Below are positions 8,892 through 61,949 of a stretch of DNA of 64,000 nucleotides, in pieces (position 1 is the first letter of the stretch; the number at the start of each line of letters is the position of its first letter). The stretch spans positions 523,714,001 through 523,778,000 of the forward strand of contig JBNRSN020000001.1 of NCBI GenBank assembly GCA_051313645.2, written 5' to 3'. Below the pieces are notes generated by a model, which was not told the origin of the DNA, made no database searches, and saw nothing but the letters and a program-made list of their open reading frames with translations. Both the position numbers and the translations under genes were made by a program. This DNA is from Centroscyllium fabricii. Its lineage: Eukaryota.

Positions 8892-9099
8892 TATATGCAT
8901 AAGAGTAAAAGGAAACATGTTCAGTACATCATCAGGGAACATTGGTTTAAAAAATACAGCTTCTTCAACGGTTGAGCAAGTTTGTCCAGCGAGTATTTGA
9001 GACGCAATAACCAGAAAGATTCCGAGTGATCTCCCGTTAACTAGTCTAATCTGGGACCGTGTTAGCATTGCTGTAGTTGTCCTCAGCATCAATCAGAAT

Positions 9100-23405: not shown

Positions 23406-23430
23406 GAAGGCTTCACAAGCTACATAAGTA

Positions 23431-23921
23431 CAGGTTGAGCACCATTAATTCGGCACGGTCGGGACCAGGACTGTGCCGAATTTTTGAAAACTCCGAATGA
23501 TTGAAGTTCGGCGAGCGCATGTGCAGACCATTCAAAATGGCCACCGCAAAATTTTGAATGGTCTCCGCATGCGCTAGCTGAAGCATCAATCATTTGGAGA
23601 GAGGCCCGGGCATGCGCAGCCAAGCACAGTGGCCATATTGCGCATGCGCAGACCAGTCGGGGAGGCCTGGGCATGCGCAGCCATGCGCGGCAACCATTTT
23701 GCACATGCGCAGGGCAGTCGGGCAGAGGCCCGGGCATGTGCAGCCATGCGCGGTGGCCATTTTGTGCATGTGCAGACCAGTCGGGCAATCGGGGAGAGGC
23801 CTGGGCATGCGCAGCCAAGCGCGGCGGCCATTTTGCGCATGCGCGCACCAGTCGGCCAGATTCGTGCCTGACGTTTGAAGTTGCCGGACTAACGGTGTCC
23901 GGATTAATGGTGCTCAACCTA
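23431..23921. mobile_element. pogo/Tigger-like MITE with internal GCGCATGCGC/GCCATTTT repeats
   Basis: TIR CAGGTTGAGCACCATTAAT...ATTAATGGTGCTCAACCT; TA TSD. Confidence 0.8.
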
Positions 23922-24274
23922 TACATTTCTTCAAAGGGATTGCAAAACATAAAATGATTTGTGGTGTCAACATCTACACATGTCCCTAAGCTAAACTATA
24001 TATTCACAGATCTACATGACCTGCCCAAACAAATTGTGCCTTTGAACACTGGGACATTGATCTATATCTACATCCACGTGAGCCCCTGATCTTGGCCATG
24101 AGAAGATGACTGGATGCCAGTCCCTTCCTCATCAGATTAGGAGGGAGAGGGGGCAGGAAATATTCTTGTGTGTGCATAGTAACCAGTCACAATTGGTGGA
24201 AATCTTTGAACTGGTCACATGTCTGTGCTCTTAGCCCAGGAATTATGCTATGTGACAATAATTTTTTCTTAAAT

Positions 24275-25311: not shown

Positions 25312-28300
25312 TGTAGAGGCATGCAGGCCTGAAGAACCACGCTGGACACAGAGGATTCGGAAAACAATCATTTAATGTTCACACAACTAGGGCCAGGTAG
25401 CAAAGAGACTGAGCCACCTGGAACCAAGGGATTTAAAGGACCCGCGGTTGGTGACGTCACTGCCGGGTGTCCACCTGGCGACGTCATCACGCCGGAAGTC
25501 GCGGTGACGTCATCACGCCGCCCGGCGGGCGGGGCCGTCTCGCAGAACTCCCGAGGCGGATTCGATGGTCCTGGTGGGCGTGTCGCCACACAGCTCCCCC
25601 CCAGAATCTGTGAGGGAGAGCGAAGTTTAAGCTAAAGTAGAAAGGAGCATAAAGTAAAATAAAAAAATGGAGCATAAAAGTTGAGTCTCAGGCGAGGTGT
25701 TGAGGTGGCCTGAGGATGCGGCCCGCCCGTGTAGTCTCAGGCGAGGCGTTGAGGTGGCCTGATGATGCGGCCAGCATGTGTCGTGCACTGCTCCTTGTTC
25801 TGCGTGGGAGTGTGGGCGGGCTTTGGTGCGGTAGGGCGTCCGCGCTTTGGTGGCTGCGCGGGGACTATTGTCTCACCCGCCATTAAATGTGCCGGTTTGA
25901 GCCGGTCGATTGAAACAGTCTCAGCTCTGTTGCCCATTTTAATCTGGAACGTTTTAGGACCCGCCCGAAGCACTCTGTACGGTCCGTCGTACGGTGGCTG
26001 TAGTGGTGTTCGATGTGCGTCGTGGCGGACAAACACATACTTGCCATTTTTGATGCCGTCTGGAACACGTGCTGGCGGCTCTCCGTGCCGGGCCACCAGA
26101 AGTGGTTTGAACGCCGCTGCCTGGTTATTGAAGTCTTTGAGGCAGCGGTCGGCTGACCAGGGGGCGTTGGTTTCTGCGACGAACTCGCCTGGTACGGTTA
26201 GGTGTTGGCCATAGACAAGTTCCGCCGCCGAGGCGTGCAGGTCTTCCTTAGCCGCTGAATGCAGGCCGAACATTACCCAGGGCAGGCGGTCGGTCCAGGT
26301 CGCATCTTTGAGGCTGGCCCGCAAGGAAGCTTTGATGGAGCGGTGGAACCGTTCGCAGAGGCCATTGGCCTGTGGGTGGTAGGTGGTGGTTCAGTGCAGG
26401 GTTGCCCCGAGGTCGTGGGCGATGGTTGCCCATAGGGTTGAGGTAAATTGGGGGCCCCTGTCTGATGTGATGTCGGTGGGGACGCCAAAACGTGCGACCC
26501 AGGTGGCAATGAAGGCCCTGGCCAGATCCGCGGTGGTGGTAGCGGTGAGGGGGACCGCTTCTGGCCAGCGGGTGCTGCGGTCGACCATGGTCATGACATG
26601 TGTATGTCCCCGTGATGGTGGTAGTGGTCCGACCAGGTCGATGTGGATGTGGCTAAAGCGTCTAGCTGGGATGGCGATCATTTCCACTGGTGCCTTGATG
26701 TGCTTGTGCACCTTGGCGCGCTGGCAGGCATTCCAGGTGTTGGTCCAGGCGCGGACATCCTTGCGCAGGCCGCGCCAAACGAATCATGCAGAGATCAGCT
26801 TTGTGGACGCGCGGACACCGGGGTGGGACAGGTCATGGAGGGTCTGGAAGATGTGTCGCCTCCATGCGTGGGGGACGACGGGTCTGGGCTGCGGGAGGGA
26901 GACGTCGCAGCGGACCTCCGTGGCTGTGGGCCCGTGTGCTACGGTGGCCAAGAGCAGGCCGGGGAGGTTCGTAGCTGGGTCGAGCAGATCGGGGTCGGTC
27001 AGTTGGTCGGCCGCCAGTTTGGCGTAGTCGACGGCCGTTTGAACGGAGTTGATGGTGGGGCGTGACAGGCAGTCAGCAACCACGTTGTCGCGGCCGGCGA
27101 TGTGCTGTATGTCGGTGGTAAACTCCGACACAGCCGCGAGCTGGCGCTGCTGCCTGGCCGACCAGGGTTCGGAGATCTTAGCCATTGCTGACACGAGTGG
27201 CTTGTGATCCACGAAGGCTGTAAAGTGGCGGCCCTCTAGGAGGAAGCGGAAGTGGCGCACTGCGAGGTAGAGAGCGAGTAGCTCCCTATCGAAGGCGCTG
27301 TACTTGACCTCCGGGGGCCGGAGTTGTCGGCTGAAAAAGGCCAGGGGTTGCCAGGAGTCGCCTGTCCACTGCTCGTAGACCGCTCCGACGGCGCGGTCGG
27401 AGGCGTCGGTGGTGAGGGCTACTCTGGCGTTGGGCCTAGGGTGGCTGAGGAGCGTGGCGTTAGCCAGGGCGGTTTTGGTTGCGGTAAAGGCGGTGGAGGC
27501 TTCGGCCGTCCACTCGACCGCAGCCTTGTTGGACTGCCCGCGGGTGGCCTGATAGAGGGGTGCCATGAGAGCGGCTGCTCCTGGGATGAAGCGGTTATAG
27601 AAGTTAACCATCCCGAGGAATTCCTGCAGCCCCTTGATGGAGTGCGGGCGGGGGAATTCCTGAACCGCCTGCACCTTGGAGGGCAGGGGTATGGCCCCGG
27701 TCTGGGAGATGTGGTGGCCGAGGAAGTCGATCGTCTCGAGGCCGAATCGACATTTGGAGGTGCTTAATATAAGGCCGTGTTCGGCCAGGCGGTTGAAAAG
27801 GGCCCTGAGATGGAGGAGGTGTTCCTGGGGGGAGGTGCTGGCCACGAGGATGTCATCTAGGTAGACGAATGTGAACTGCAAGTCCCGCAGGACTGAGTCC
27901 ATGAGGCGCTGGAAGGCCTGGGCCGCGTTTTTAAGTCCGAAGGGCATTCGGAGGAATTCAAATAATCTAAATGGGGTAATGACGGCTGTCTTAGGGACGT
28001 CCGCCGGGTGCACTGGTACCTGGTGGTAGCCCCGTACCAGGTCGTGCTTGGAAAAGACCGTGCAGCCGGCTAGCCTTGCTGAGAAATCTTGGATGTGGGG
28101 GACGGGGTACCTGTCCGGGGTGGTGGCGTTGTTGAGGCGGCGGTAGTCTCCGCAGGGGCGCCAGCCGCCGCCGGGTTTGGGGGCAATGTGGAGGGGGGAG
28201 GCCCAGGGGCTGCTGGAGCGGCTGATTATGCCGAGTTGTTCCATGGTGCGGAACTCAGCGCGCGCGATCTCCAGCTTGGCCGGGTCCAGCCTACGTGCGT

Positions 28301-29938
28301 GGGCATGGACTGGGGGGCCTGTGGTGGTGATGTGGTGCTCCACCCCGTGCTTGGCCGTACGGGCTGTGAAGGTGGGGTTGGTGAGGGCTGGGAACTCCGC
28401 GAGGAGCGTGCCGTACGTGCCGGAGTTCCGGGCTCGGCAGTGGGACGCTGTGTGGGCCTGGTGTGCCGGCCCTGTGGAGCATGGGATGGTCGACATGTTG
28501 TGGATGTCGACCAGGCGGTGTCGGGTAACGTCGACCAGGAGGCCGTGGGCGCACAGAAAGTCGGCCCCGAGTAGGGGTATTTTGACTTGGGCTGTGATGA
28601 AATCCCACTTGTACGTGTGGCCTGCTAGCTTGATGGTAAGCTGGCGGGTGCCGAACGTAACTATCTCGGAGCCGTTTGCGGCTTCGAGTGGTGGGCCTTG
28701 GGTGCCTTGCTTGGTTTCTGCGGGGGAGGCTGGCACGATGCTGTGCTGCGCGCCTGTGTCGCAGAGGAAGCGGAGGCCTGAGCCACTGTCCGTGACGAAG
28801 AGCAGTGCTCCGGAGCGGCCTACGGACATGGTGGGGCTTGGGCTGGTTTGGGGTTTGAAGGTGCAGGGCTGGACGCAGCGCTGCGCTTTAGCTTGAAACC
28901 TGGTGTGGTAGTAGCACCAGCCGGGGCCTGTGGTGCGTGGCTTTTTACGGGTCCGCACCGGTCTGGGTTGGGACCTGGGGCCGGGCCTGGGGTGCGCGTA
29001 GTACTGCTCCGGTGGAGCGGCGGTGGGTTGGCACGTGGCGGCTCGGGTGCGCTCGGCCCTCATCAGCTTGTCGGCCTCCTGAGCCAGTTGCTCCTTGGTA
29101 TAGTGCTCAAGGACCGTCAGAGACGGTCTGACGGAGGGGGGCAGTTTAAGGAGGAACAAGGCGCGCTTAATGGTGGCCGGGTCACAATTGAGCGCTTCCA
29201 TTTGGGCCCAGAGGTCCGATGGGTCTGCGTCCCCGAGTTCGGGGAGGTTAATGAGCTGGCAGTCGCGCTCAAATTGGGTGGGGGTGAAATTTTGTAGCAG
29301 CGCGGCCTTAAGCGTTTCATACCTGCCAGCGGTTGGTTCGTGCTGTATGGATGACCACATTCGGTCGATCGTGGGCTGTGAAAGGGCCGCGAAGAGCAGG
29401 CTGTATCGATCGTCCCCCTGCACGCCATGTATGCGGTAGGTGTTCTCTGTGTTGAGGAACCAGGCCGCTGGACGGAGTTCCCAGAACTCTGGTAAGTTTG
29501 GGATTTGGCCGTAGTTCTGGCCCCGTCTGTGGAGTCGTGCTGTTTGGCTCCCTGCTGGCATGGTGGTTGTGATTCAACTGAGGCAGCTTGGCCCTCAGTC
29601 CTGCAGCAACTGCTTCATTATGTTCCCTTGGAATTCGTTCCAAGTATCGAGGTCACCACTGTAGAGGCATGCAGGCCTGAAGAACCACGCTGGACACAGA
29701 GGATTCGGAAAACAATCATTTAATGTTCACACAACTAGGGCCAGGTAGCAAAGAGACTGAGCCACCTGGAACCAAGGGATTTAAAGGACCCACGGTTGGT
29801 GACGTCACTGCCGGGTGTCCACCTGGCGACGTTATCACGCCGGAAGTCGCGGTGACGTCATCACACCGCCCGGCGGGCGGGGCCATCTCGCAGTACTCCC
29901 GAGGCGGATTCGATGGTCCTGGTGGGCGTGTCGCCACA
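25312..29938 (-). mobile_element. Full-length Gypsy LTR retrotransposon 2 (CsRn1-like)
   Basis: 279-bp LTRs 25312-25590 and 29660-29938 (about 5 differences); TSD TTAG/CTAG; PBS TGGTGACCTCG (tRNA-Trp-like); PPT next to the 3' LTR. Confidence 0.97.
25737..29561 (-). pseudogene. gag-pol polyprotein of Gypsy-2; 925 codons open, then two in-frame TGA stops in the integrase
   Basis: CHCC gag motif, DTGA protease, YLDD RT, TDAS RNase H, integrase DDE/GPY; one frame, 1275 codons. Confidence 0.93.
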
Positions 29939-39705: not shown

Positions 39706-40620
39706 AACAACAACAACTTGCATTTATAGAGCAACTTTGATGTAGAAAAACATCCCAAGGTACTTCACAGAGGTGTAAGGAAGACAGCGGACACTTTTCC
39801 AATGAAGCAGATATTAGAAAGTGTGAACAAAAGCTTAGTCAGAGAGGTACGATTTACATAGAAACATAGAAGATAGGAGCAGGAGTAGGCTATTCGACCC
39901 TTCGAGCCTGCTCCGCCATTCAATGAGATCATGGCTGATCATCCAAACCAAGCACCCTGTTCCTGCCTTGTCCCCATATCCCTCGATCACTATCGAGCCT
40001 GCACCGACACATATCCCACCCTATCCCCGTAACCCCAGATATTCAATCCCCCTAACACGAAGGGTCAATTTATCATGGCCAATCAACCTAACCCGCACAT
40101 CTTTGGACTGTGGGAGGAAACCGGAGCACCCGGAGGAAACCCACGCAGACACGGGGAGAATGTGCAAACTCCACACAGACAGTCACCCGAGGCTGGATTT
40201 GAACCCGGGTCTCTAGTCTAAGGAGGTTCTTAAAGAGGAACAGGAAGCTCGTGATGCAGGGGCATTTAAGAAGTGATTTAAAGAGCATGGAGCCAAGGCG
40301 ACTGAAGGCATGCCTGTCAATGGTGGCATGAAGGCAAGAGGTATGTCAGAGAATGAAGAGTTCAGGGAGGATGGTAGCACTTGAGAGAGTTACAGAAATA
40401 GGGAGGAGTAAATCCGTGAATAGATTTTCAATTTGAGGCTTTGAGGAACTGGAGCAGATGTCGGTCCTCGAGGGTAGAATGATTGGTGAGTGGGACTTGG
40501 TGCAGGATAGGAGGCAGGCAGCAGAGTTTTAGATGGACTGGCATTTACAGAGTGGAGGATGGGAGATTGATCAGGGGAGCATTGGAATAGTCAAGTCTAG
40601 AGGTGACAAAGGCATGAATA
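39706..40620 (-). mobile_element. Old L2 fragment, interrupted by an HE1-like SINE (39857-40216)
   Basis: ACAACAACTTGCATTTATA tail; GGAATAGTCAAGTCTAGAGG as in the L2 at 15740. Confidence 0.7.
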
Positions 40621-41651
40621 AACAAGATGTGGAGGTGCCGGTTTTGGACTGGGGTGGACAAATGTAAGAAGTCACACAACACCAGGTTATAGTCCAACAG
40701 TTTTATTTGAAATTACAAGCTTTCGGAGCGCTGCTCCTTCACCAGGTGTAAGAGAGATGCATTTAAACACAGCATATATAGACGGAGAACAATGTAATCT
40801 TTCCAACTGCCCTTCATCACACCTCGGCAGAGAGACATTCATAGCAATCAAAGGTGTGAACGGTGTTTTAACAGATCAGTCAGCCAGGCAGGCACCACCC
40901 TAGGAACAATGAGGTACAGTCACAAAGGGTCAAATGATGCAGTCTGGGTCTGTGTGAAGTCCCACACAGAACAATTTTTTTTAAAGATTTATCTTGCTGG
41001 AAATCGCAGCCGGTTCAGCCGCATCTGCGTGGTGAGGACAAGCCAAAGACGACTCGAGTCTGGATGACTGTACGTCAGGTGGGGTCACATGTAGCGCGAC
41101 ATGAAGCCAATATCTCGTTTAGGCTGCACTCATGAGCACGGCCTCAACCGAGATATTGGCTTCATGTCGCGCTACATGTGACCCCCACCTGACGTAGAGT
41201 CATCCAGACTCGAGTCGTCTTTGGCTTGTTCTCACTACGCGGATACGGCTGTACCGGCTGCGATTTCCAGCAAGATAAATCTTTTTTTTAAATTGTTCTG
41301 TGTGGGTTTTCACACAGACCCAGACTGCAACATTTGACCCTTTGTGACTGTACCTCATTGTTCTTCTGATGGTGCCTGCTTGACTGATCTGTTTAAACAC
41401 CATTCACACCTTTGATTGCTATGAATGTCTCTCTGCTGAGGTGTGATGTAGGACAGTTGGAAAGATTACATTGTTCTCCGTCTATATATGTTGTGTTTAA
41501 ATGCATCTCTCTTACACCTGATGAAACATAGAAACTAGGAGCAGGAGTAGGCCATTCGGCCCTTCGAGCCTGCTCCTAGCAACGCTCCGAAAGATTGGGA
41601 TTTCAAATAAAACTGTTGGACCAAAACCTGGTGTTGTGTGATTTCTTACAT
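40621..41651. mobile_element. Palindromic Penelope-like insertion 1 (family A)
   Basis: Arms 40662-41124 and 41141-41651 are inverted copies; 16-nt loop; ORF end THEHGLNRDIGFMSRYM*; probable TSD CATGAATA. Confidence 0.88.
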
Positions 41652-41656
41652 GAATA

Positions 41657-42125
41657 GGAGGCGGTGGCATCATGGTTATGTCACTAGACTAGTAAGCCAG
41701 TGGCTCAGTCAAATGCTCTGAGGATATGGGTTCAAATCCCACCACGGCAGCTGGTGGAATTTAAATTCAATTCAATTTAATTCTGAAATTAAATGTTAGT
41801 CTTAGTAATGGCGACCATGATACCATTGTCGATTGTTGCAAAAACCCATCTGGTTCACTAATGTCCTTTAGGGATGGAAATCTGCCGTCCTTACCTGGTC
41901 TGGCCTACATGTGACTCCAGACCCACAGCAATGTGATTGACTCTTAATGCCCTCTGAAATGGCCCAGCAAGCCACTCAGTTGTAAACAACCGCTACAAAA
42001 AACAATAAGACTGCAGCGGTTCAAGAAGGCGGCTCACCACCATCTTCTCAAGGGCAATTAGGGATGGGCACTAAATGCAGGCCTAGCCAGCCAGCGACGC
42101 CCACATCCCATCACCGAATAATAAA
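41657..42125 (+). mobile_element. tRNA-derived SINE with the tail of the GGGCAATAAATGCTGGCC LINE family
   Basis: A-box GGTGGCATCATGG, B-box GGTTCAAATCC; 3' end matches 61455-61546. Confidence 0.75.
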
Positions 42126-42439
42126 AAAAAACAATACTGAGCTACAGGCTTTACATTGGAACCGAACTACCATCATATTATTTTCAGATCCTAATGCCAT
42201 TCATTCTATTGGACCCATGCATGGAGAACGATCATTCTCTTCCTGATACAGCAATGCCATTGTGACTTGCTCGGATCCAGATTTTGCATCTGATTACACA
42301 GTCACCATGAATAACATCCTTGTTTAATCTTCCTGGAATACTGCTCCAGACATCTGGGTAGTTAAACGCATCATCTGCTAGGAGCTTCCCTCGGCCACGA
42401 AGTGATGATATGCGCGTGGTGGAGTAGGCAACATATAAG

Positions 42440-42862: not shown

Positions 42863-43019
42863 ATGTCTATAGCTAACTTAACCTTCCTTCCCTCTGTAGC
42901 CTACCATTACACCTCTCACCATTCATGGGATACTCTGCTTCTCTCTCCTCTTACCATTGTGGCAATAATTCAAGGACCCAACAGCTTACCACAAGCTCGA
43001 TGATATAGACAAAAACAGA

Positions 43020-43155
43020 TAGTTCTGAAGAAAGGTCATCGACCTGAAGCGTTGACTCTGTTTCTCTCTCCACCGATGCTGCCTGGCCTGCTGACTTTCT
43101 CCAGCGTTTTCTGTTGTTGTTTCAGATTTCCAGCATCCGCTGTATTTTGCTATTG
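43020..43155 (+). mobile_element. Penelope-like family B terminal fragment with a mutated hammerhead
   Basis: agtt-CTGAAGA-a-aggtc atc gacct-GAAG-cgtt-gact. Confidence 0.72.
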
Positions 43156-43294
43156 CAAAAACAGATAGTATTGACTTAATCATGCTTTCTATTATTGAAA
43201 GAAAAGACCAACACATACAAATATTGCAATTCTTCACAAACCGCTTTCTCAATTTTCTCCCAATTTCTCTCAAAGGCTTATTGTTTCATGGGTG

Positions 43295-44037
43295 TGGAGG
43301 TGCCGGTGTTGGACTGGGGTGGACAAACGCAAGAAGCCACACAACACCAGGTTATAGTCCAACAGTTTTATTTTAAATCACAAGCTTTCGGAGCGCTGCT
43401 CCTTCCTCAGGTGAAGTGTCGAGATTCATTTAAACATAGCATATACAGAGAGAGAGAGAACAATGTGGTCTCTCCAACTGTTTCACATCACACCTCAGCT
43501 GAGGGACATCAAAGCAATCAAAGGTGTTCTAACATATCAGTCAACCTGAGATCAAAGGGTGCAGTCAGAAAGGGTCAAATGTTACAGTCTGCTGTCCTTG
43601 AAAATTCCACAGAATGATTTAAAAACAAGGATTTTTCTTACTGAAAATCGCAGAACAAGCCTGACGTAGAGTCATCCAGACTCGAATCATCTTTGGCTTG
43701 TTCTGCGATTTTCAGTAAGAAAAATCCTTGTTTTTAAAAATCATTCTGTGGGATTTTCAAGGACAGCAGACTGTAACATTTGACCTTTTGTGACTGCACC
43801 CTTTGACCTCAGGTTGACTGATATGTTAGAACACCTTTGATTGCTTTGATGTCCCTCAGCTGAGGTGTGATGTGAAACAGTTGGAGAGACCACATTGTTC
43901 TCTCTCTCTCTATATACATGCTGTGTTTAAATTAATCTTGACACTTCACCTGAGGAAGGAGCAGCGCTCCAAAAGCTTGTGATTTAAAATAAAACTGTTG
44001 GACTATAACCTGGTGTTGTGTGGCTTCTTGCGTTTGT
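43295..44037. mobile_element. Palindromic Penelope-like insertion 2 (family A)
   Basis: Arms 43323-43661 and 43695-44037; 33-nt loop; 14-bp TSD TTGTTTCATGGGTG (43281-43294, 44034-44047). Confidence 0.9.
43378..43414 (-). ncRNA. Minimal type I hammerhead ribozyme motif (family A), intact
   Basis: tcac-CTGAGGA-a-ggagc agc gctcc-GAAA-gc-tt-gtga. Confidence 0.75.
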
Positions 44038-44317
44038 TTCATGGGTGCCAGCAGCTCTCTGGTACTTTGCCCAAATGGCTATTCCTCATGTGTGAGCCAA
44101 GACAGTGAATGTCAAGAGCCTATTCAACTGTTAAGGGCGTTACAGCTGATCCCAGCCTTGTCTTCATCAATATCCAAAACATGTGCTTTCTACCAAGGGT
44201 CACTGCTGGTGATCAAATGTGAGAACGCAGCTGAATCCTGTTGTAGCATGACTGCTACTGCCTGGCTCGGGTCAACAAACTCAGCAAAGAGCAGGGATTG
44301 ACCTTGGGAACTTACTA

Positions 44318-44689
44318 CAGGTTGAACACCGGTAATCCGGCACCCGATGGTCCGGCAGCTTCAGTGGTTCGACACGATTGGTAACCGGCGCTCTTCATTT
44401 TTGCGGAGCAGCCGCTCGGCAGCGCCACCGTTTCCCACAAAGGGTGAGCGAGCGCCGAAGGCGTCGGGCGTTCTGTTATTTTAGGTTTTGTAAGTGTTCT
44501 ATCCCCGGGCTCCCTCCTGGGGAGTGTTCTACCCGCGCGCTCCGGGCCGGGGGAGTGTTCTACCCGTGCGTTCCGGGCCCCGGGAAGTGTTCTACTGCGC
44601 GCTCCCCCCGAACCTTCAGTGGTTCAGAATTTTCAGTGGTCCGGCATCGGCCTGGTTCCAACGGTGCCGGATTAACGGTGTTCAACCTG
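44318..44689. mobile_element. pogo/Tigger-like MITE (short version of 7458-8891, reversed)
   Basis: TIR CAGGTTGAACACCG, TA TSD, about 4 minisatellite units. Confidence 0.85.
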
Positions 44690-44844
44690 TAGTACCGAAG
44701 GCCCAGCACCCCATTAGTTAATGAAATTGCTCATTAAGTCTTTGGGAGTATTTCATAAATATGTAAGGAAAACAGTGCAAGATTCAAAGGATTACCACTT
44801 TCTTCACACCAAGCAAGATCCATCTTTCTGTTTCACTATTGCTA

Positions 44845-47326: not shown

Positions 47327-50190
47327 TCAACAGTTCACAATGAGTCTCTCTGGCGGTCGTGTCTGCCTTGAGGACCGCCGGGGTTCTGGTAGTGGCGCTG
47401 GTGCCGGTTGTGGCGGCGGGGCCGGGTCCTCCGGCAGCTGTGCCTGCGGTGTGGCGTCTGGCTCTGGGTCCTCAGCTGGTAGTGTCGGGGGCCCCGGTGT
47501 GTGCGTGTGCCTAGGCCAGTATCCGGTGGGTTGTGGTTGGTGTGTAGGCCAGTGGTCAGTAGGCGGTGGCTGGTCGGGCTGAGGCTCGACCAGGGGCTCT
47601 GCTGTGGTGCTCCCGGCGGGCGCTAGGTCCCTGATGGAAACAGTGTCCTCGCGCCCGTCTGGGAACTGCACGTAGGCGTACTGCGGGTTGGCGTGCAGCA
47701 GCTGCACCTTTTCCACCAGGGGATCGGTCTTATGGCCGCGGACATGTTTCCTAAGTAAGACCGGCCCTGGCATCGTGAGCCACGGTGGGAGTGCTGTCCC
47801 CGAAGTCGACTTCCTGGGGAATGAAAACAATAAGTCGTGAGGTGTGGCGTTGGTAGCCGTACACAGCAGAGAGCGGATGGAGTGGAGCGCGTCTGGGAGG
47901 ACTGCCTACCAACGGGACACTGGAAGGCCTCTGGACTTCAGGGCCAGGCTGACCGCCTTCCAGATGATCCCGTTCTCCCTTTCTACCTGGCCGTTCCCCC
48001 GGGGGTTGTAACTGGTCGTTCTGCTCGAGCCAACCCCTTTCTGAAGCAGAAACTGACGCATTTCGTCGCTCATGAACAACGACCCCCGGTCGCTATGGAT
48101 GCAGCTGGGGAGACCGAAAATGGCGAACAGCGTGGTGAAGTGTTTGATCACCATTGCGCTCGTCATATCTGGGCAGGGGAAGGCAAAGGGGAAGCGGGAG
48201 AACTCGTCTACGACCGTGAGGAAGTACGAGTTGCGGTCGGTGGAGGGGAGTGGGCCTTTGAAGTCCACGCTTAGACGTTCAAAGGGGCGGGTGGCCTAAA
48301 TGAGATGTGCCATGTCTGGCCTGTAAAATTGGGGTTTGCACTTGGCGCAAACAGGGCACTCTCGGGTCATAGCCTTGATCTCCGTGATGGAGTAGGGGAG
48401 GCTACGAGATTTAACGAAATGGGCAAGTCTGGTGATAGCCGGGTGGCAGAGGCGATCGTGGAGTTCCTTCAGCCGGTCTAGCTGGGCACTGGCGCAAGTT
48501 CCCCTGGACAGTGCATCCGGGGGTTCGTTGAGTTTGCCTGGTCAGTAAAGAATGTCGTACTCGTAAGTCGAGAGCTCGATCTGCCACCGCAGGATCTTAT
48601 CATTCTTGATTTTACCCTTTTGTTTATTGTTAAACATAAACGCGACTGACCGTTGGTCGGTGAGCAGGGTAAAACGCTTACCGGCCAGGTAATGACGCCA
48701 GTAGCGCACGGCCTCCACGATGGCCTGGGCCTCCTTTTCCACTGCAGAGTGGCGAGTTTCGGGTCCCTGTAGGGTGTGGGAGAAAAACGCTATGGGCCTG
48801 CCTGCATGGTTCAGGGTGGCGGCAAGGGCAAAGTCCGAAGCGTCACTCTCCACCTGGAAAGGGATGGACTCATCAACGGCGTGCATGGTCGCCTTGATAA
48901 TATCTTCCTTAATCAGGGCGAACGCCTTTTGGGCTTCTACCGAGAGGGGAAGACGTCAGCCTTGAGGAGCGGTCTGGCCTTGTCCGCGAACTGGGGAACC
49001 CATTGCGCGTAATAGCAGAAAAATCCCAGACATCTCCTCAGGGCTTTGGGGTTGTGAGGTAAGGGCAGTTCCTGTAAGGGGCGCATACGCTGTGGGTCGG
49101 GGCCGAGGACCCCGTTTTCCTCCACGTATCCGAGGATGGCGCGCCGATCTGTACTAAAGACGCACTTGTTTTTATTTTACATGAGATCGAGCCGTTTCGC
49201 CGTGTGGAGGAATTTGGCCAGGTTGGCATCGTGGTCCTGCTGGTCATGGCCGCAGATGGTCACGTTGTCCAGGTAGGGGAAAGTGGCCTGCAACCCATTC
49301 TGGTCAACCATGCGGTCCATCTCCCTTTGGAATACCGACACTCTGTTGGTCATGCCGAAGGGGACCCGGAGGAAGTGGTAGAGCCGACCGTTCGCCTCGA
49401 AGGCGGTGTACGGGCGGTCGGCTTTCTGGATCGGGAGTTGGTGATACGCCGACTTAAGGTCGATTGTGGAGAAAACCTTATACTGGGCGATCTGGTTAAC
49501 CATGTCCGAGATGCGTGGAAGGGGGTAGGTGTCGAGCCCGCGGTATTGGTTAATGGTCTGGCTGTAGTCGATCACCATCCGCAGTTTCTCGCCAGTCTTA
49601 ACCACTACGACCTGGGCCCGCCAGGGGCTGGTGCTGGCTTCAATTATCCCCTCCTGCAGCATACGCACGACCTCCGACCTGATAAATGCCCGATCCCCCG
49701 CACTGTAACGCCGACTCTTGGTAGCAATAGGTTTGCAGTTGGGGTCGAGTTTGGCGAACAGCGAGGGGGGGTCGACTTTCAGGGTGGATAGGCTGCAAGT
49801 TGGGCCCCGCTTTAGGAAGGGATTTTCCCGGCTACTGACGGTGAGGGGGGCCAGGGTCCCGCCGAACTCCATTGTCACGCTCTGCAGGTGGCACTGGAAA
49901 TCCAGTCCCAGTAAGACTGGGGCGCACAACTGCTGGAGTGTGTACAGTTTAAAATTACGGTACACACAGTCCCTGACTGTGAGCGTGACGGAGCAGTAGC
50001 CGGTGACGTCCGCCGTGTGGGACTTTGAAGCAAGGGAGATTTGGTAGTGCGTGGGCAGGGTCTGCAGTCCGTAGCGCCGCACTGTGTCGGGGTGAATGAA
50101 GCTCTCTGTGCTTCTGGTGTCGAACAGGCAGTTGGTGATATGGCCGTTAACTTTAATCCCCATCATGGAATTTGATAGGGTGTGACGCCT
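47327..50190 (-). pseudogene. Gypsy-3 pol (protease, RT, RNase H, integrase), frameshifted and with stops
   Basis: LFDTRS (protease site variant), IDLKSAYHQ, YLDN, SDAS RNase H, HSDRG and NGQVER integrase. Confidence 0.88.
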
Positions 50191-50252
50191 AGCCTGGTCG
50201 ACCGTGGCTGAGGCCGAAGTGTGTGTGTGTGTGTGTGTGTGGGGGCCCTCCG

Positions 50253-51518
50253 CTAACTGGGGCCGTGCACAAGATGGCGGCGCCCGTGGTTCGCACGCAG
50301 CCGACCGCGGTGGACAAGATGGCGGCGCCGGGGGGTCGCACATGGCTGGCCGCTGAAGACAAGATGGCGGCGCCGGGGGGTCGCACATGGCTGGCCGCTG
50401 AAGACAAGATGGCGGCGCCATGATTCGCACACAGCGGGCCGCGGTGGACGCAGTGGCGGTGCCCATGGTTCGCACGTGGCGGTCCGCGGTGGCCGAGTTG
50501 GCGCCGCCCGTGATTCGCACGCAGTGGGCCGCACTGGGCGAGATGCCGGCGTTGGGGGGTCGCCTATGGCCGGCCGCGGCCATCTTTGGTGTGGCGGTGC
50601 CCGTGCCGTGTGCGCGGCCGGCCTCTGCCGTATCAGGGTGGGAGACGGGGGCGCTTGTAATCTACCCCCGGACCGCTGCTGGGTCGCGCTGCAACAGCAG
50701 CTTACCTGAGGCCATGGGATGGCTTTGGAGCTCTCGCAGGCCGCGCTGTTGTGTCTGGAGCTGGGCGCTGGGGCCGACTTGCAGGCCCTGGCGTAGTGTC
50801 CCTTTTTACTACATCTCTCACAGGTCGCGGTCCTCGCGGGGCATTTCGCTCGCGGATGCAGTCCCTGGCCGCAGAAGTAGCATTTTCTGTCCGCCGGCGT
50901 CTTCGCAGCTGCCGCTGCCATTGTGGGGGTCTCGACCTGTCGTGGGGCCGCCCAGGAATCGAGGGTGTCGTGTGGGCCTTGGCCGCTGTATGCCTCTAGC
51001 CTGCGGCGTGCTCCATCCACCGCGTTAGAGATGGAGATCGCCTCCTCCAGCGATAAAGTCTCTTTTTCCAGCAACCACTGGCGGGCCTGGCTGGACCTGA
51101 TCCCCATCACGTAGGCGTCTCGAACGAGAAGATTTGTTTCCTCCTGCGCCATTTGTGGCTGGCAGTCACAGGCCCGGGCGAGGGCTTGAAGCGCCAACAA
51201 ATACTGTTCATTAGACTCACCGAGCCGTTGTTGTCTGGTCGCCAGCACGTGTCTGGCATAGACCGAGTGGACCGGGCGCACGTAGCATGCCTTCAGTTTC
51301 TCCACGGCCTCTTCGTACGTTGTTGCGCCGCGGATGAAGGAGTACACCCGGCTGGTGATCCTGGACGAGAGAACGTGGAGTTTGTTCTCGTCGGTCATCG
51401 CCTTGGCGGCCGCCACGTAGGCCTCGACAAGGCTGAACCAATGTTTAAACGTATTGGCGCCGTCTGGTTCCTGTGGATTAATATCCAGCTTTTCGAGTTT
51501 CACAGCGCCGCTCTCCAT
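50253..51518 (-). pseudogene. Gypsy-3 gag (two CCHC-type knuckles)
   Basis: CYFCGQGLHPRAKC and CERCSKKGHYARAC; ATG 25 nt downstream of the 5' LTR; 3' end uncertain. Confidence 0.85.
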
Positions 51519-52139
51519 TTCAAAAATTTAAAGTGATTAAAATTGACGTATCGTCAATAAGACAAAGACGAGTAGTTACCTTAACTAGAGGCTTTTAATC
51601 ACTTTACAATGGAGCTAGTCTCCAGTCAAACATTGAGTACAGAATGAATGGGGGCAGGTCAGACCTCACCTATAAGGTGCTCACCTGAGGGGAGGAGTTA
51701 GAGGTGTGGCTGACCTGACCTCGCGACAGTGTCGTTATACAAAACTATATACAATGCACCCAGCCACTATACATGCTGGTCTGTATTGTGCTCAACTACA
51801 TACACTGGTAATCATGATTACCACACTCTCCCAGCTGTGAACAGCCTAACTCAGCTAAGAATGGGGAGTCGAACCTGAGACCTTGCTGGTCTGTATAGTT
51901 CATTAGCACAGTGGACAGCAGATTTACCGCCTGAGCCATCAGGGCACATCGTCTCACGATTATTTTTTTCTGAGGATATCACAAAACATGAGTGACTATC
52001 CGAGATCACCATCAGGCAAACCTTCGTCTGTCCAGTTCCAAACGGTTTCTATGCATTTCAAAGAGCTGTTTGTAAGTGCAGAACTGCTGCATTATAATAA
52101 AAACATGGAACCTCAGCTCACCTAACTGTTCAACTGGTT

Positions 52140-54586: not shown

Positions 54587-55452
54587 GGAGGAGAAGACAT
54601 TGGCACAAAAAGGAAGGGGAATTATTAAAACAAACAAAACTACTCAGGATTTCTAGTGTCCATGGAAGAGTATAGTCAATGGGTTAAACATTTAAGCGAT
54701 TGGTATTTATTATGTTTCTTCCCAGAATACCTTAATTTCTCAGAGTCCTGGAAGTGTGTTGTGCAATCTGCCATCCGTTTGACACATAGCAAACACGAGC
54801 ACACCCATCACTGAAAAGTGAAACGGAGACTTGTCCTTTCCCAAAGATGGCAATTTGACATTTTTGTTCCCTATTAATTCTGTAATTAAGTTGTTTTTAA
54901 GTCAATTATTTGGACAGAACAGCTTCCATTTCATGGTTCAAAAGGAACTGTAAACATGCTTTATTTCCACTGGTGTGTCTGGCATTTGCTATAAATGTCT
55001 AGGAATAGTTGAAAGATTGTTCGACATTCTGCAGAGCCTTGAAGTGTGCAGCGCTCTGGTCCCATCGCTCAGGAACAGACAATCCACACGTTCTAAGATA
55101 AAACCACTACAAATACAATACTTAGACATCTATCTTAATTAAGATTTCCCGACGTATTTTATTCTTCAAGTGCCGAGTTTCTTGAAACAAATGCTACAAA
55201 CATTGCATTTTGACAAATGCAAGTTCTTTTCTTGATACGAGTCTGCGCCGGTAATTACTCAAAGGAGATGGGAAGTTTGGGGGCTTTCTTTCTATGCGAA
55301 GTCATCCACCTTTTCACAGAAGAAAGTGATCTACATAATATCAGAATGGTCTTTGATGTTTTAGTAAAACTTCCCAGCCAGTGCTGTGGCTTTCCAGGGT
55401 ACTGCAGCCTCGCACAGCTTCCAAGCGAGTCTGAAATCATTCCGACTGATAC

Positions 55453-58300
55453 ACCCCATCCCCACCTCCCCCATTCACCCCATCCCCCCACCTCACCCCC
55501 CATTCACCCAATCCCCCCACCTCAACCCCCATTTACCCCATCCCCAACCTCCCCACCATTCACCCCATCCCCCCACCTCAACCCCCATTCACCCCATCCC
55601 CAACCTCCCCACCATTCACCCCACCATTCACCCCATCCCACACCTCCCCCAACCACCCCATCTCCCACCTCCTCCACCCACCCCACCCACCCACTACCCC
55701 CATTCACATCATCTCCCCCCTTCCCCCATTCACCCCGTCCCCCACCTCCCCATCCCCCGCCTCACCCACATTCACCCCAACGCCCACCCCCCCACCCAGC
55801 CCACCCCCCACCTCACCCCCACCCATCCCTACAACCCCCATTTACCCCAACCCCCACCTCCCCCCATTATCCCCATCCCCCAACTAACCCCCATGCATCC
55901 CACCCCCACCTCCCCCACTTTTCAGCTCATCACCCCACCTCCCCCCACCCACCACTCCTCCCTCCATTCACCCCATCCCCCACCCCCCATTCACCCCATC
56001 CCCCCACCTCCCCCCACCCACCCCATCACCCCAACTCTCCCATTCACCCCATCACCCACCTCCCCCATTCCCCCATCCCCCACCTCCCCCCATTGCCCCA
56101 TCGCCCCCACCCCCCCATTCACCCCATAACCCCCCTCCCATTCACCCCATCCCCCACCCCCCCATTAACCCCATCCCCCACCTCCCCATTCACCCCATCG
56201 CCCATCTCCCCCATTCACCCCACCCCCCACCTCCCCATCCCCCACCGCCCCCCATTCACCCCACCCCGCACCCCCCATACACCCCACCCCGCACCCCCCA
56301 TACACCCCATCCCCCCACCCACCTCATCCCCCACCTCCCCCCATTCACCCCATCCCCCTCCTCCCCCACATTCACCCCCCATCTCCCACTTCCCCATTCA
56401 CCTATCCCTCACCTCCCCCCACCCACCCCATCCCCCAACTCCCCCCATTCACCCCCCCCCCCGCCCCCATTCAATTCAATTCAATTCACTTCAAATTGCT
56501 TTATTGGCATGACAAGATACATCTTATGTTGCCAAAGCACAGAAAAAGGACATATACAATTGAACATACACATGCAGATCTAGACATACAGTGAATGGAT
56601 AACTATGCAAACACATACATATATACCCACATATAAATCTCATATACTCTTCTTAGCTTCAGTGGTCACTGGTTGTCCCTCTGCTTATGGCAAGCTGTGA
56701 CGTAGTTTGACGCTAATTTTATACAGTCCCTCTGTTCCCCCAATAGATATGGGAGTTTTTGGTGGACGTTCAAATTTTTGAATTCAGGGCATGTTTTTAC
56801 AAATTTTGGGTAGAAATTCCCCCTTATGTCCTGATAGTTTTCACAAGTTGTGAGGAAATGCAGCTCTGTCTCCACCACTCCCTGACTGCAGTGAGAGCAC
56901 AGCCTTTCCTCTCTGGGCAGCCAGGTCTGTCTGTGTCTGCCTTTTTCGCTGGCTAGGTTATGCTCACTAAATCTGTACATTGTCAGGGTTTTTCTCAGTT
57001 TGCTATCTTTCACCATGGTCAGGTAATCAGCCATGTTGTACAGTCTGTTTAGGGCCAAATAACAATCTAGTTTGTTTTGGGCTTTTGTCGTTTCTGTCAT
57101 TTCGATTTGGATTGACTTTTTAATGGCATAGAAAGCCCTTTTTGCTTTCTCTTTCAGTTCATTCACAGCCAAGTGAAAATTTCCCATGGAACTGATTTTT
57201 AAGCCTAAGTATGTGTAATTTGTAGTTTGTTCAATTTTAGTTGCTCCTAGTGTGAAGTTTGTTTTGGTTCCCTGATGTCTGGATCTTTGCTGGAACACAC
57301 GAACTTTAGTTTTTGGGGGGTTTATTGTCAAGGCCCAGTTCTGGCAGAACGACTCGAGCCGATCAAGGTTCTACTGTAGACCCTCTTCTGTTGGTGACAG
57401 CAGAACCAGGTCATCTGCATATTGGAGAAATGTAACCTTGGAGTCATATAGGGTGAGGCTAGGTGCTGTAGATTGTTCCAGTAGTTTTGCCAATTCATTT
57501 TTATAAATATTAAAAAGAGACAGTGATATAGACCCAATCTCTCCTCCCCCCATTTACCCCATCCCCGACCCCTCCCATTCACCCCATCCCCCACCTCCCC
57601 CCATTCACCCCATCCCCCACCTCCCCCCATTCACCCCATCCCCCAGCCCCCCATTCACCCCATCCCCCCATTCACCCCATCCCCCACCTCCCCCCATTCA
57701 CCCCATCCCCCACCTCCTCCCATTCACCCCATCCCCCACCTCCCCCCATTCACCCCATCCCCCACCTCCCCCCATTCACCACCTCCCCCCATTCACCCCA
57801 TCCCCCAGCCCCCCATTCACCCCATCCTCCAATTCACCCCATCCCCCACCTCCCCCATTCACCCCATCCCCCACCTCCCCCCATTCACCCCATCCCCATT
57901 TCCCCCATCCCCCAGCCCCCCATTCACCGCATCCCCCACCTCCCCCCATTCACCCCCTCCCCCTCCCCCATTCACCCCATCCCCCTCCCCCCATTCACCC
58001 ATCCCCCCATTCACCCATCCCCCCACCCCCCATTCACCCTCCCCCCATTCACCCTATCCCCCCTCCCCCCATTCACCCATCCCCCCATCCCCCCTCCCCC
58101 CATTCACCCTATCGCCCTCCTCCCATTCACCCCATCCCCCATATCCCCCCATTCCCCCCATCCAACCTCCCCCCATTCACCCATCCCCATTCACCCATCC
58201 CCCTCTTCACCCCTCCCCCATTCACCCATCCCCCATTCACCCCATCCCCCCATTCACCCCATCCCCTACCTCTATCCCCCCACCATCCCTCCGCCAGCCT
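55453..58300. repeat. C-rich minisatellite (CCCCATTCACCCCATCCCCCACCT-like), split by a LINE at 56468-57545
   Basis: Degenerate repeats of about 20-25 nt at 55453-56470 and 57541-58300. Confidence 0.93.
56468..57545 (-). mobile_element. RTEX-like LINE fragment with internal deletion
   Basis: QYADDLVLLS RT motif; C-terminal RLCSHC...ETELHFLTTC Zn-finger; AATAAA plus (TTGAA)n tail. Clade call is from memory of motifs. Confidence 0.7.
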
Positions 58301-58325
58301 ACACCATCCACTCTATTCTATATAA

Positions 58326-58394
58326 ATTGCAAGAAGTCACACAACACCAGGTTATAGTCCAACAGTTTTATTTTAAATCACAAGCTTTTGGACA
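58326..58394 (-). mobile_element. 69-bp Penelope family A terminal fragment
   Basis: 13-bp TSD CTATTCTATATAA (58313-58325, 58395-58407). Confidence 0.8.
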
Positions 58395-60198
58395 CTATTC
58401 TATATAAGCAGCCCTGGGTGCGCAGTGATGCTCCCTGTCCCTGGAGAAGAAGCCTGACAGCGAGGGAATCCCAACTAAAGTAGTCCCGTTGCTGGCAATA
58501 ACGTTTACATTTCTGGCATGTTTATTATTTTCTTCTGTTAAAAAAAATGGAACAATATGGAAGAGAAATAATTTCCCCTTGAAGTGAGTTCCCCTTTTAA
58601 AGGCAACGTACTTGGTAGAATTCTAAATATAACCAAAACACATCTACAAATTTCTAAAATAAGTAATTTCTGCCTTACCAGCTAAAGTGCTCAGTCAGTC
58701 TTGTCACTGTAAAATGCATTTTGCTAAGTGAGTTACTTTCTGTTTGGTGCTCATCAGCTGCACATTTTGTTGCAAGGCCAAAGATACATCTTTTTCCTCC
58801 TAAAACACTCATGTAATTGGTAACTCTTTACTCTACTGAAAAGGTCATAACCCTTCCATTAAAATGTGGATTCTATATCAAAGTCTAAAAGCATGAATCC
58901 TACAATTAAATAAAGAAGATTTCATTTTATCTATTCCAGCAGTTATAATCCTCGAGTCCAAAGCTGACTTTTGTTCTAATGTATTAGTCTGACACTTTAT
59001 TCTGTAAGTAAGATACCGGAGGGCTGTTACTTATCAACTCCAATTACAGACAGGGAGACAGAATCATTACAGCACTGAGTTCTCGCAGGCCTCGCGAAAC
59101 TCAAAGCGAGCTGCAAATTATCACTGAGTCATTGCTGATTGAGGCTAGTAAATGTTTGTTGAAAAGTTTACCACTCATAGTTAAAGTCTCGACATTTTCG
59201 ATTATGAGCAATACAATCCATACAGCTCAAAAATACCCACAGACATTTAATGTTGCTTTTGCGTCATGCAATATGACACACCATTTCCTGCCTTAGTAAT
59301 AGCTTAATAAACATAAACAACTATAATGCATCTACAAAACCTGAATCAAGCTGTTCCTACTCTATCGACTAGCTAAAGTGTTAAATTAACCTCCTCATTG
59401 CTGAATTTATTACAGTTTGCTTGTTATAAATCTAGTCTAATCCTATAACTTATGTTCTGATTATACTGATCTCTGATATCTTAAATCTAGGCTAAGAATT
59501 TGTTTCCAATGCTTCGTTAACTGACTTACTCTGTTTACACTTGGGCTGATAACTGGCAAGGAACATTCGCACCACACAAGTGCCAGGCAATGACTATCTC
59601 CAACAATGATGTGGAGGTGCCGGTGTTCAATCCCCCTAACACTAAGGGTCAATTTATCCTGGCCAATCAACCTAACCTGCACATCTTTGGACTGTGGGAG
59701 GAACCGGAGCACCTGGAGGAAACCCACGCAGACACGGGGAGTATGTGCAAACTCCACACAGATAGTCACCTGAGGCCGGATTTGCACCCGTGCCCCTAGC
59801 GCTGTGAGGCAACAGTGGTAACCACTATGCCACTGTGCCGCCCATAGCGTGTAGCGTGACATGAAACCAAGATCCCGGTTGAGGCCGTCCTCATGAGTGC
59901 GGAACTTGGCTATCAGTTTCTGCTCGACGATTTTGCGTTGTCGTGTGTCTCGAAGGCCACCTTGGAGTCACACGACAACGCAAAATCGCATCTGCAACAT
60001 TTGACCCCTTGTGACCCCACCTCATTGTTCTTTGATGTAATGTTTTCCTGACTGACCTGTCTGGACACCATTTACACCTTTGACTGCTGTGATTATCTCT
60101 CTGCCGAGGTGTGATAAAGGGCAGTTAGAAAGATTACCTGTAATCATCTAGCAGTGTTCTCTGACTATATATGCTGTACCTATATGCATCTCTTCACT

Positions 60199-60235
60199 TC
60201 ACCTGACGAAGGAGCAGCGCTCCGAAAGCTTGTGA
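60199..60235 (+). ncRNA. Minimal type I hammerhead ribozyme motif (family A), intact
   Basis: tcac-CTGACGA-a-ggagc agc gctcc-GAAA-gc-tt-gtga; predicted cleavage after 60231. Confidence 0.78.
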
Positions 60236-60236
60236 T

Positions 60237-60781
60237 ATCTTTCCTAAGGAATTTCCTAAGGAAGCTGAAAAGGGCCAAGCTGACATCTGGCATCCTCACC
60301 AACGTCTACCGCTTCCCGATCGAAAGCATACTGCCAAGCTGCATCACAGTCTGGTATGGAAACTGCACCATCTCGGACCGGAAGGCCCTGCAGTGGGTAG
60401 TCAAGACTGCCCAACGAATCACCGGCACCCAGCTACCATCAATTGAATGCACCTATCTCAAACGCTGCCTACGGAGGTCTCAGAACATTATTAAAGACCC
60501 CACACACCCCAGCCATAGTCTGTTCACCCCGCTGCCCTCCGGGAGACGCTACAGATCAATTCGCACCCGCACGACTAGATTCAAGAACAGCTTCTTCCCC
60601 AAGGCTGTCAGTCTCCTGAATTCTAACAAAAAGCTCCAGGATCCGCACACCTGAAACGTACTTTATTGTATGCAATTGTATGTAACTTATTTGCACTACT
60701 CTCGGGAGCGGCGAGTCTTCATTTCATTGTATTGTACTAGGACACTGCAATGGCAATAAAATTGAATTGAATTGAATTGAA
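60237..60781 (+). mobile_element. Rex1/Babar LINE 3' fragment
   Basis: Highly similar to 19900-20424; TSD TTGTGAT (60230-60236, 60782-60788). Confidence 0.87.
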
Positions 60782-61949
60782 TTGTGATTTCTAATAAAGC
60801 TGTTGGACTGTAACGGGGTATTGTGTGACTTCTTACATATCTCCAACAAGTGAGAGTCTAACCACCGCCCCATGACATTGAACGGCATAACCATTGCCAA
60901 TCCCCCACCATTGACGAGAAACTTAACTGGACCAGCCATATAAATAATGTGGCTACAAGAGCAGGTCAGAGGCTGGGTATTCTGCAGCGAGTGTCTCACC
61001 TCCTGACTCCCCAAAGCCTTTCCACCATCTGCAAGGCACAAGTCAGGAATGTGATGGAATACTCTCCACTTGTCTGGATGAGTGCAGCTCCAACAACACT
61101 CAAGAAGCTCGACACCATTCAGGACAAAGCAGCCCGCTTGAGTGGCACTCCATCCACCACCTTAAACATTCACTCCCTCCACCATCGGCGCACCGTGGCT
61201 GCAGTGTGTACCAGCTACAAGATGCACTGCAGCAACTCGCCAAGGCTTCTTTGACGATTACTCCCAAACCTGTAACCTCTTCCACCTAGAAGGACAAGGG
61301 CAGCATACGTATGGGAGCACCACCACCTCCAAGTTCCCCTCCAAGTCACACACCATCCTGACTTGGAAGTATATCGGCCGATCCTTCATCATCGCTGGGT
61401 CAAAGTCCTGGAACTCCCTCCCTAACAGCACTGTGGGGGCACCTTCACCACACGGACTGCAGTGGTTCAAGAAGGCAGCTCACCACCACCTTCTCAGGAG
61501 CAACTAGGGATGGGCAATAAATGCTGGCCTTGCCAGTAATGCCCACTGTTGTGTCTCCTAGCGCTCGTAGTGCTTTGTAAAGATGACTCTGGACTCAGTA
61601 GTTTGATTTTATTATCTTGGTACTTTACTTATTACAAATGGCTGCTCCCTCATGGTGCGGGGTGATACATCCAACTGCCTGTGAGACGGCTGCAGCACTT
61701 CTTTTCCAGCACCGTAGTGCTGCTGTTTGATTTAGGTGTTAGTACACGTGTATAAAGTAGTCCCACAAATAACTATGTAACATCCTCTTTCCCAACAAAA
61801 CTAATTACATCAATTTCTATATTACAAATGTTTACAGCTAACTAACGTTAACAAACTACAGAAACGTGAGCTTTCTTTGCTCATTTTATATACAGATATT
61901 TGTCCATGTTCTTTTACTGTTCCGTATGAATTATATTTGTCTTATATAA

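Follow-up and report, generated by a model that had tools for sequence, protein, structure and literature searches.

Inverted, truncated copies joined to a tail of 30–40 nt at one end have been described as typical of Penelope-like elements (PLEs; PMC8557442, PMC3846280), so that the short tails and inverted pseudo-LTRs (pLTRs) that the original prediction for this locus named as known for PLEs are in print, and a curation guide lists the same pattern of inverted copy plus tail (PMC8969392). Self-priming has been proposed from palindromes at the junctions (PMC3846280), and the formation of the inverted copies as well as the completion of integration are called open in PMC8557442 and PMC11167929. 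The biochemistry of PAc (Poseidon_Ac of the green anole) shows that this protein, a predicted dimer, nicks and extends both strands of its target, and that reverse transcription (RT) starts at two sites bounding the tail, one of which lies 85–92 nt past the ribozyme cut (111–118 minus 26; PMC11167929). The minimal hammerhead ribozymes of PLEs, in turn, are reported to need a same-strand dimer, and pairs on opposite strands, 100–700 bp apart, have already been reported in Schistosoma (PMC4209133).

The locus analyzed here, copy A (40621–41651), lies in 64 kb of repeat-rich vertebrate-type DNA from the shark Centroscyllium fabricii (the window, that is, the whole stretch analyzed), and its structure is itself the published PLE insertion signature. 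Specifically, it shares with the inverted-pLTR-plus-tail units of PLEs with a C-terminal EN (EN+ PLEs; PMC8557442; PMC3846280 for Pen2a_Av) an inverted 5'-truncated copy adjoining the 5' end, a head-to-head junction with a short palindrome, a tail of 30–40 nt at one end only and a target-site duplication (TSD) of variable length. It differs from these rotifer and other EN+ units in that the shark arms are short (340–510 nt), which makes the whole unit a near-perfect hairpin without coding capacity, and the TSDs of the shark copies measure 12–14 nt, compared with the 8–10 nt quoted for rotifer copies. The inverted arms around a 16-nt loop within the last ORF codons, and the roughly 36 extra nucleotides on the left arm alone, are as originally predicted (Table 1): the two arms, 40662–41124 and the reverse complement of 41141–41651, are identical in 426 of 459 ungapped columns (92.8%), the loop occupies 41125–41140, where the end of the ORF is translated, and the 36-nt tail is present on the left side only. 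Of the element span, which had been drawn from 40621, all but the beginning stands, as 40621–40625 are likely target duplication rather than element. The last 5 nt of the left TSD recur at 42130–42134, beyond a later repeat (41657–42129) that we take to be SINE-like and that likely split the right TSD. A second, smaller insertion of about 50–54 nt sits in the right arm only and is missing from the left. This insert (41523–41579, in the right hammerhead) forms an 11-bp stem, the last 3 bases of which extend the repeat's own hairpin, and its site is a GGAGCAG-like stretch that resembles the insert's own sequence.

Table 1. Features of the five insertions of the family in the window (positions of the 64-kb stretch).
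Feature	Positions	Strand	Remarks
Copy A, left TSD	40613–40625	+	8 nt recur at 41649–41656; likely 13 nt in all
Copy A, one-sided tail, 36 nt, long 3' end	40626–40661	-	+91 from predicted hammerhead cut
Copy A, left arm, 5'-truncated PLE 3' end	40662–41124	-	3' UTR, hammerhead remnant, ORF stop at 41085–41087
Copy A, left minimal-hammerhead remnant	40713–40749	-	Core CUGGUGA (A6 changed); stem I mismatched
Copy A, 16-nt loop, element-sense ORF sequence, part of the right, tail-less arm	41125–41140	+	14/16 sense vs 11/16 antisense to copy C ORF end
Copy A, final 18 codons and stop of RT/GIY-YIG ORF	41125–41181	+	Translation CTHEHGLNRDIGFMSRYM, then stop
Copy A, right arm	41141–41651	+	Ends at short 3' end (+53 to +55)
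Copy A, right minimal-hammerhead remnant	41514–41600	+	Stem II split by later insertion; helix-III palindrome changed
Later insertion, end of another high-copy repeat	41523–41576		15 other matches in the 64-kb window
Copy A, right TSD, first 8 nt	41649–41656	+	3 nt overlap element end
Later repeat, presumably SINE-like	41657–42129	+	High contig depth
Copy B, left TSD, 14 nt	43281–43294	+	
Copy B, one-sided tail, 32–34 nt	43295–43326	-	
Copy B, left arm	43327–43661	-	Intact minimal hammerhead (43378–43414)
Copy B, 33-nt loop, element-sense, belongs to tail-less right arm	43662–43694	+	31/33 sense vs 19/33 antisense
Copy B, right arm	43695–44033	+	Hammerhead G12 changed to A
Copy B, right TSD	44034–44047	+	First 4 nt equal the element's next bases; X13/X14 contigs join 43280 to 44034
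Copy C, left TSD, 12 nt	59595–59606	+	Repeated at 60838–60849
Copy C, left arm	59607–59967	-	Tail stub 59607–59628; later 219-nt repeat 59629–59847; ORF end 59848–59967 (40 aa); 3-nt loop 59957–59959
Copy C, right arm	59968–60838	+	Intact hammerhead core 60203–60235; 543-nt repeat inserted at 60240–60782
Copy D, single-arm tail-less 3' end	5005–5100	-	Intact hammerhead; no TSD found
Copy E, single-arm tail-less 3' end	58326–58394	-	13-nt TSD, 58313–58325 / 58395–58407

The same asymmetry had been noted at 43295 and 59607, each time with its own TSD and fold-back point, and both copies are confirmed. In copy B (43295–44033; TSD 14 nt, loop 33 nt), the arms agree at 330 of 339 positions (97.3%), while copy C (59607–60838; TSD 12 nt, loop 3 nt) is broken up by two later repeats and by a deletion, and little of its left arm survives. 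The fold-back point indeed changes from copy to copy, the loops of 16, 33 and 3 nt in A, B and C lying at distinct places. The bases at the tail end of copy C (59607–59612) could begin an ATG, and the long end may coincide with the start codon of the ORF. Next to copy B, a second stretch (43010–43155) is absent from the orthologous contigs of X13 and X14, making it another lineage-specific insertion.

Comparison of the copies with the window by BLAST yields five insertions of the family, three of them palindromes (A, B and C) and two with a single arm (D and E). A scan of the whole window for fold-backs (25-nt arms, loop up to 60 nt) returned four sites, namely A, B, C and one unrelated 25-bp inverted repeat with an 18-nt loop (23511–23578) inside a region of short tandem repeats (23420–23995). 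A foldback DNA transposon or MITE, which would have fixed terminal inverted repeats, symmetric ends and one structure throughout the family, was discarded as an identity for these units: their ends are asymmetric, the axis differs per copy, each arm is the 3' end of a retroelement, and some copies have a single arm. Scans with a DNA pattern for further copies returned none in metagenome contigs and none in viral contigs, and the lone match in a bacterial genome (L002) was taken as chance. Several other features were observed in the window. Copy E sits at the end of long C-rich low-complexity tandem arrays (55200–58330; GC skew -0.37 to -0.57). An element of about 370 nt that is flanked by TA and bounded by terminal inverted repeats (44318–44690), and which holds a few units of the GC-rich tandem repeat seen at 7429–8920, is presumably a non-autonomous Tc1/mariner-type DNA transposon. 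Three stretches on the minus strand (11544–15287, 25737–29573 and 47327–51527) show gag, protease, RT, RNase H and integrase motifs by eye, the first two being closely related and each interrupted by stops; we take them to be coding regions of Gypsy-like LTR retrotransposons.

The protein data agree with the original assignment to the Penelope-like elements. The 40-aa ORF end at the centre of copy C matches 23 of 24 candidate proteins at 74–100% identity, those with names being from sharks, and the domains are found in the matching proteins: P0004 (643 aa, 97% identical to the window's ORF end) contains Pfam RVT_1 (E 5e-9) and P0006 (87% identical) a GIY-YIG domain (E 2e-5), with no significant Pfam match for the 40-aa piece by itself. 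The 18 codons of copy A share 14 of 18 residues with the C-terminus of P0004, an RT/GIY-YIG protein. In alignment A1, P0004 and its relatives carry a DKG motif as well as a CCHH motif with two Cys between the GIY- and YIG-like motifs, the features by which EN+ PLEs are defined in PMC8557442. The RT–EN linker reads CX4CxxC in P0004 and in five of the six other A1 rows that cover the site (P0024 is without the first Cys), in agreement with the CX2-5CxxC linker that sets Neptune/Nematis apart from Penelope/Poseidon; the Neptune-type label is read from this motif in homologues, the window holding only the last 18–40 codons and no full-length copy. As judged through its homologues, the family is a Penelope-like element with a C-terminal EN. 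Its DNA has the corresponding marks: all three palindromes combine an inverted 5'-truncated copy with a one-sided tail of 30–40 nt and a variable TSD, and a minimal hammerhead lies in the terminal repeat. Read in element sense, each arm runs from the ORF end through the 3' UTR and the minimal hammerhead to the 3' end, and the 5'-truncated ends face each other. Copy A is almost certainly a decayed insertion made of two 5'-truncated Neptune-type PLE 3' ends, head to head. As a separate observation, gene models of shark XRCC5, FAM204A and FAM210B isoforms (P0002, P0016 and P0022) contain the element's ORF end (the last ~100 aa in P0002), which would be either an exonised PLE or an annotation error.

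The two arms of a unit most likely derive from one subfamily in a single event. Of the 330 alignment columns that A and B share in all four of their arms, 51 pair the left arm of each copy with its own right arm and one speaks for a different pairing; in the multiple alignment, from which the C-left rows were left out as misaligned and from a different part of the element, identity is 91–96% from arm to arm and 79–80% between copies. In this comparison, which had been set beforehand as a test, the arms are closer to each other than to other copies. One TSD frames each unit, with 8 contiguous nt in A (likely 13, later split), 14 in B and 12 in C, and 13 nt flank the single-arm copy E. Moreover, contigs of X13 and X14, two related organisms of one study among the 4 of 21 sequencing runs whose contigs were compared, join 43280 directly to 44034 and thereby present the empty site of copy B with a single 14-nt target copy. 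The divergence between the arms of copy B (9/339, 2.7%) is below that of the flanks relative to X13/X14 (6.2–6.3%; 51/811; Fisher p 0.013 against X13), which fits arms that were identical at insertion, and the arms of copy A differ by 7.2% (Fisher p 0.56 versus flank divergence), which predicts an age for copy A equal to or above that of the split from those organisms.

Two discrete 3' ends recur in the family. Counted from where the ribozyme is predicted to cut, the short end lies at +53 to +59 in each of the five insertions, D and E with their single arms among them; the three palindromes all have their long end at +87 to +92, the positions in copy C being assigned by homology. Since the short end is the only 3' end of D and E, it should be a start or cut site rather than a point at which self-copying stalls, and in our analysis it behaves as an RT start site; pairing between target and RNA at this end amounts to 3 nt in A, 4 nt in B and 1 nt in C. 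The family resembles PAc in that two discrete 3' ends bound an AC-rich tail downstream of a minimal hammerhead, and the long end, 87–92 nt past the cut, falls where one PAc start does (85–92 nt), a likeness by position (PMC11167929). PAc differs in belonging to the Poseidon rather than the Neptune clade, and the text of that paper, as far as it was available, draws no link between two-strand extension and the inverted structure.

The ownership of the loop provides a second line of evidence: a snap-back product would have its loop continuous with the arm that is the original cDNA, the opposite arm being the copy. In A (by 14 against 11 of 16 positions) and in B, it is the tail-less arm that continues into the loop, and in C it is the tailed arm; the polarity of C is read from a 3-nt loop and a single diagnostic base, which falls in a glutamine codon whose residue is invariant in A1. 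Under snap-back, the tailed arms of A and B would therefore be copies with bases that their template lacks. A self-copying cDNA that halts just short of its priming end, as originally proposed, hence fits only C among the three palindromes, and the short end occurs in D and E as well. With respect to the turns, A and C fold back at natural imperfect palindromes, that of A coinciding with the loop in the ORF; copy C could form an 8-bp hairpin with a 3-nt loop, and the loop of copy B folds as a hairpin (-3.3 to -5.5 kcal/mol). Microhomology at the junctions was rejected as evidence on mechanism: the 2–3 nt in A and B equal background, at least 2 nt being available at 59 of 61 and 284 of 315 possible stop points.

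Copy A may well have arisen in a single event in which both nicked target strands served as primers and the cDNA ends were then joined, a reading that we hold with moderate confidence. Specifically, the GIY-YIG nuclease of the element would nick both target strands about 12–14 nt apart, and each 3'-OH would prime RT on element RNA, one at a proximal start (~+55) and the other at a distal start (~+90), such that the one-sided tail would be the RNA between the two starts. Both cDNAs, whether a single RNA was read twice or sister RNAs from one source were copied, would stop early and anneal by their 3' ends at a short self-complementary spot. Fill-in would then produce the palindrome, the loop belonging to the cDNA that ran further, and repair of the staggered nicks would leave the TSD; if only one strand primed, a single-arm copy such as D or E would result. 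Family, geometry, TSDs, discrete end positions, both loop polarities and the copy B empty site are observed, and from the discrete ends in single-arm copies and the two polarities, together with the two-strand extension and two starts of PAc, we infer the priming from both strands and the joining of the cDNAs. In LINE-1 twin priming, two target nicks likewise prime two cDNAs, which are joined at short complementarity and leave an inversion inside one TSD, and which copy different, non-overlapping parts of the RNA. The shark arms, in contrast, overlap fully, and in this reading their cDNAs would copy the same part of the RNA from starts 32–36 nt apart and so give a palindrome; this weakens the case for counting the locus as L1-type twin priming and leaves the claim that it works like it unaffected. 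A literature search by title and start of abstract returned no twin-priming account of PLEs and no shark PLE structure; subscription reviews (2005, 2006) fell outside its scope, and the idea may be in print.

Other routes to the same structure can be envisaged, some of which require a single molecule only. A strong rival, if somewhat unlikely, is that a long-end cDNA, or an antisense-templated self-primed product, copied itself fully into a snap-back hairpin, of which the element's nuclease then cut one strand at the short site before the hairpin was joined to the target. Such later trimming would yield near-identical arms without reading the RNA twice, permits either loop polarity, suits the turns of A and C at natural palindromes and the folding loop of B, and is close to the published proposals of self-priming (PMC3846280) and EN-mediated resolution (PMC8557442); recognition by the D. 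virilis EN, moreover, depends on the tail (as cited in PMC11167929). What speaks against it is that in vitro both tail boundaries are RT starts and both target strands are extended (PMC11167929), and that D and E, which have no hairpin, share this short 3' end. The original prediction, in which a target-primed cDNA from the tail snaps back and its self-copy stops ~35 nt before the priming end, is improbable: for A and B it would make the tailed arm a copy with sequence that its template does not have, and the supposed stop coincides with the 3' end of the single-arm D and E. Copy C, with its loop on the tailed arm and its 8-bp hairpin around 3 nt, does fit an early stop, but as a general rule this is contradicted by two of three copies.

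Explanations that do without a joint origin of the arms fare worse. Two independent insertions in opposite orientation, with the arms later homogenised by gene conversion, would be helped by the great abundance of the family (summed contig depth of 10^5–10^6 over the arms versus about 7 over unique flank, which is not a copy number) and by the ability of PAc to nick its own pLTR (PMC11167929). They are nevertheless very improbable, given that a single TSD frames both arms in three of three palindromes with no internal TSD at the centre, that the junction always joins two 5'-truncated ends, and that two relatives lack both arms of B together. Least credible of all, and close to negligible, is a fold-back artefact of sequencing or assembly. 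Among the contigs listed from the four runs, none spans the centre of A or B, or the junctions of copy A; yet the arms of A differ by 33 substitutions and a one-arm insertion, in balance between the arms (15 left-derived, 14 right-derived), TSDs are present, and contigs cross the outer junctions of B with 0 differences (both in X1, the right one in X2), although these runs may be the source sample.

Priming from both strands has weak points of its own. It draws on three palindromes, among which units with two long or two short ends number 0 of 3 (a chance of 1 in 8 under even odds), and start-site use by PAc, without a strand difference, would allow long/long and short/short palindromes too (PMC11167929). 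In addition, the junction overlaps are at background, the natural palindromes of A and C suit intramolecular snap-back equally well, and the literature examined yielded no demonstration for any PLE that one RNA is read twice. More tentatively, symmetric dual priming could be general to PLEs, with a dimeric RT-nuclease acting on both nicked strands from RNA starts ~35 nt apart and a second enzyme loading on the free tail to re-read the same RNA.

A distant relative adds to the picture of the tail. A protein-seeded metagenome scan gave one locus from 92 candidate stretches (L001; 59% identity to P0004 residues 467–642), in which no fold-back was found and the layout is kept: stop codon, UTR, a minimal hammerhead whose stem II differs, a 20-nt motif (19 identical to shark) and the tail core. 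The tail is predicted to pair with the upstream conserved motif over 9 bp in B-left and L001 and 7–8 bp in A-left. Pairing holds in 26 of 27 cells, and the changes seen are G-U changes on one side of the helix, with none on both sides. Shuffled tails reach equal stem length in 201/2000 cases for B-left (9 bp), 631/2000 for A-left (7 bp) and 97/2000 for L001 (10 bp with G-U). Given how often the shuffles match, the stem is a weakly supported candidate RNA structure. In the predicted fold, the short end lies in the loop of the tail stem and the long end just beyond, a placement that resembles the "AC-rich stem loop" of PAc (PMC11167929). The 9-bp stem, which the relative (59% protein identity) also has, may as modelled set where the two RT starts fall. 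The shared hammerhead, motif and tail core lie at L001:986–1090 and at 43295–43414 of the window (minus strand); with a second pairing, to the neighbouring stretch, the RT starts would sit in a pseudoknot-like or switchable structure.

The hammerheads belong to a known type. The stem-II motif occurs five times in the window versus 0.01 expected by chance, and its layout (CUGANGA, an extra base, a 5-bp stem II, GAAA, a palindromic AGCU and a 4-bp stem I) is that of the minimal type-I form. Specifically, it shares with the minimal type-I hammerheads of metazoan PLEs (PMC4209133) the CUGANGA core, the extra base before G10.1-C11.1, a short stem I, a palindromic 15.2-16.2 and the absence of helix III; unlike those, both copy A motifs are mutated, and Rfam at its gathering threshold gave no family and no match in the 64 kb. 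Judged by sequence over the whole hammerhead region, three of six arms are intact (B-left, C-right and D) and three broken (A-left, A-right and B-right). The left motif of copy A has the core CUGGUGA, and stem II of the right one is split by a 54-nt piece of another repeat.

It had been suggested that the hairpins place a ribozyme on either strand. This is literally true of the motif, which lies on both strands, but intact hammerheads number 0 of 2 in copy A and 1 of 2 in copy B, and in predicted folds of the whole of A or B, on either strand, the motif sits inside an arm–arm duplex of 342–434 bp; folding z-scores of the hammerhead regions are unremarkable (-1.3 to +0.8). With motifs broken or buried and a same-strand dimer reported to be needed, a functional role for a ribozyme on either strand is unlikely in these models. 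Copy A is a passive scar, its hammerheads broken and such that they would lie within the arm–arm duplex. The suggestion of long dsRNA agrees better with the models, as the predicted folds give a long arm–arm duplex if a copy were transcribed through. The differences between the copy A arms, balanced as they are, show no single dominant substitution class, and A-to-I editing is not readable from genomic arms.

These findings bear on how PLEs complete their integration. If dual priming is true, one step would explain the one-sided tail, the head-to-head inversion and the joining of the second end without a separate second-strand step, and the in vitro result of 2024 would be tied to a genomic pattern. 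In the short, abundant, TSD-bounded copies of sharks, the arm that owns the loop can be compared with the arm that owns the tail, a readout that separates snap-back from priming on two strands; independence of loop side and tail side across thousands of shark copies would then be the genomic signature of dual priming. Furthermore, hairpins of 350–500 bp at such high density could be a candidate source of dsRNA in shark introns.
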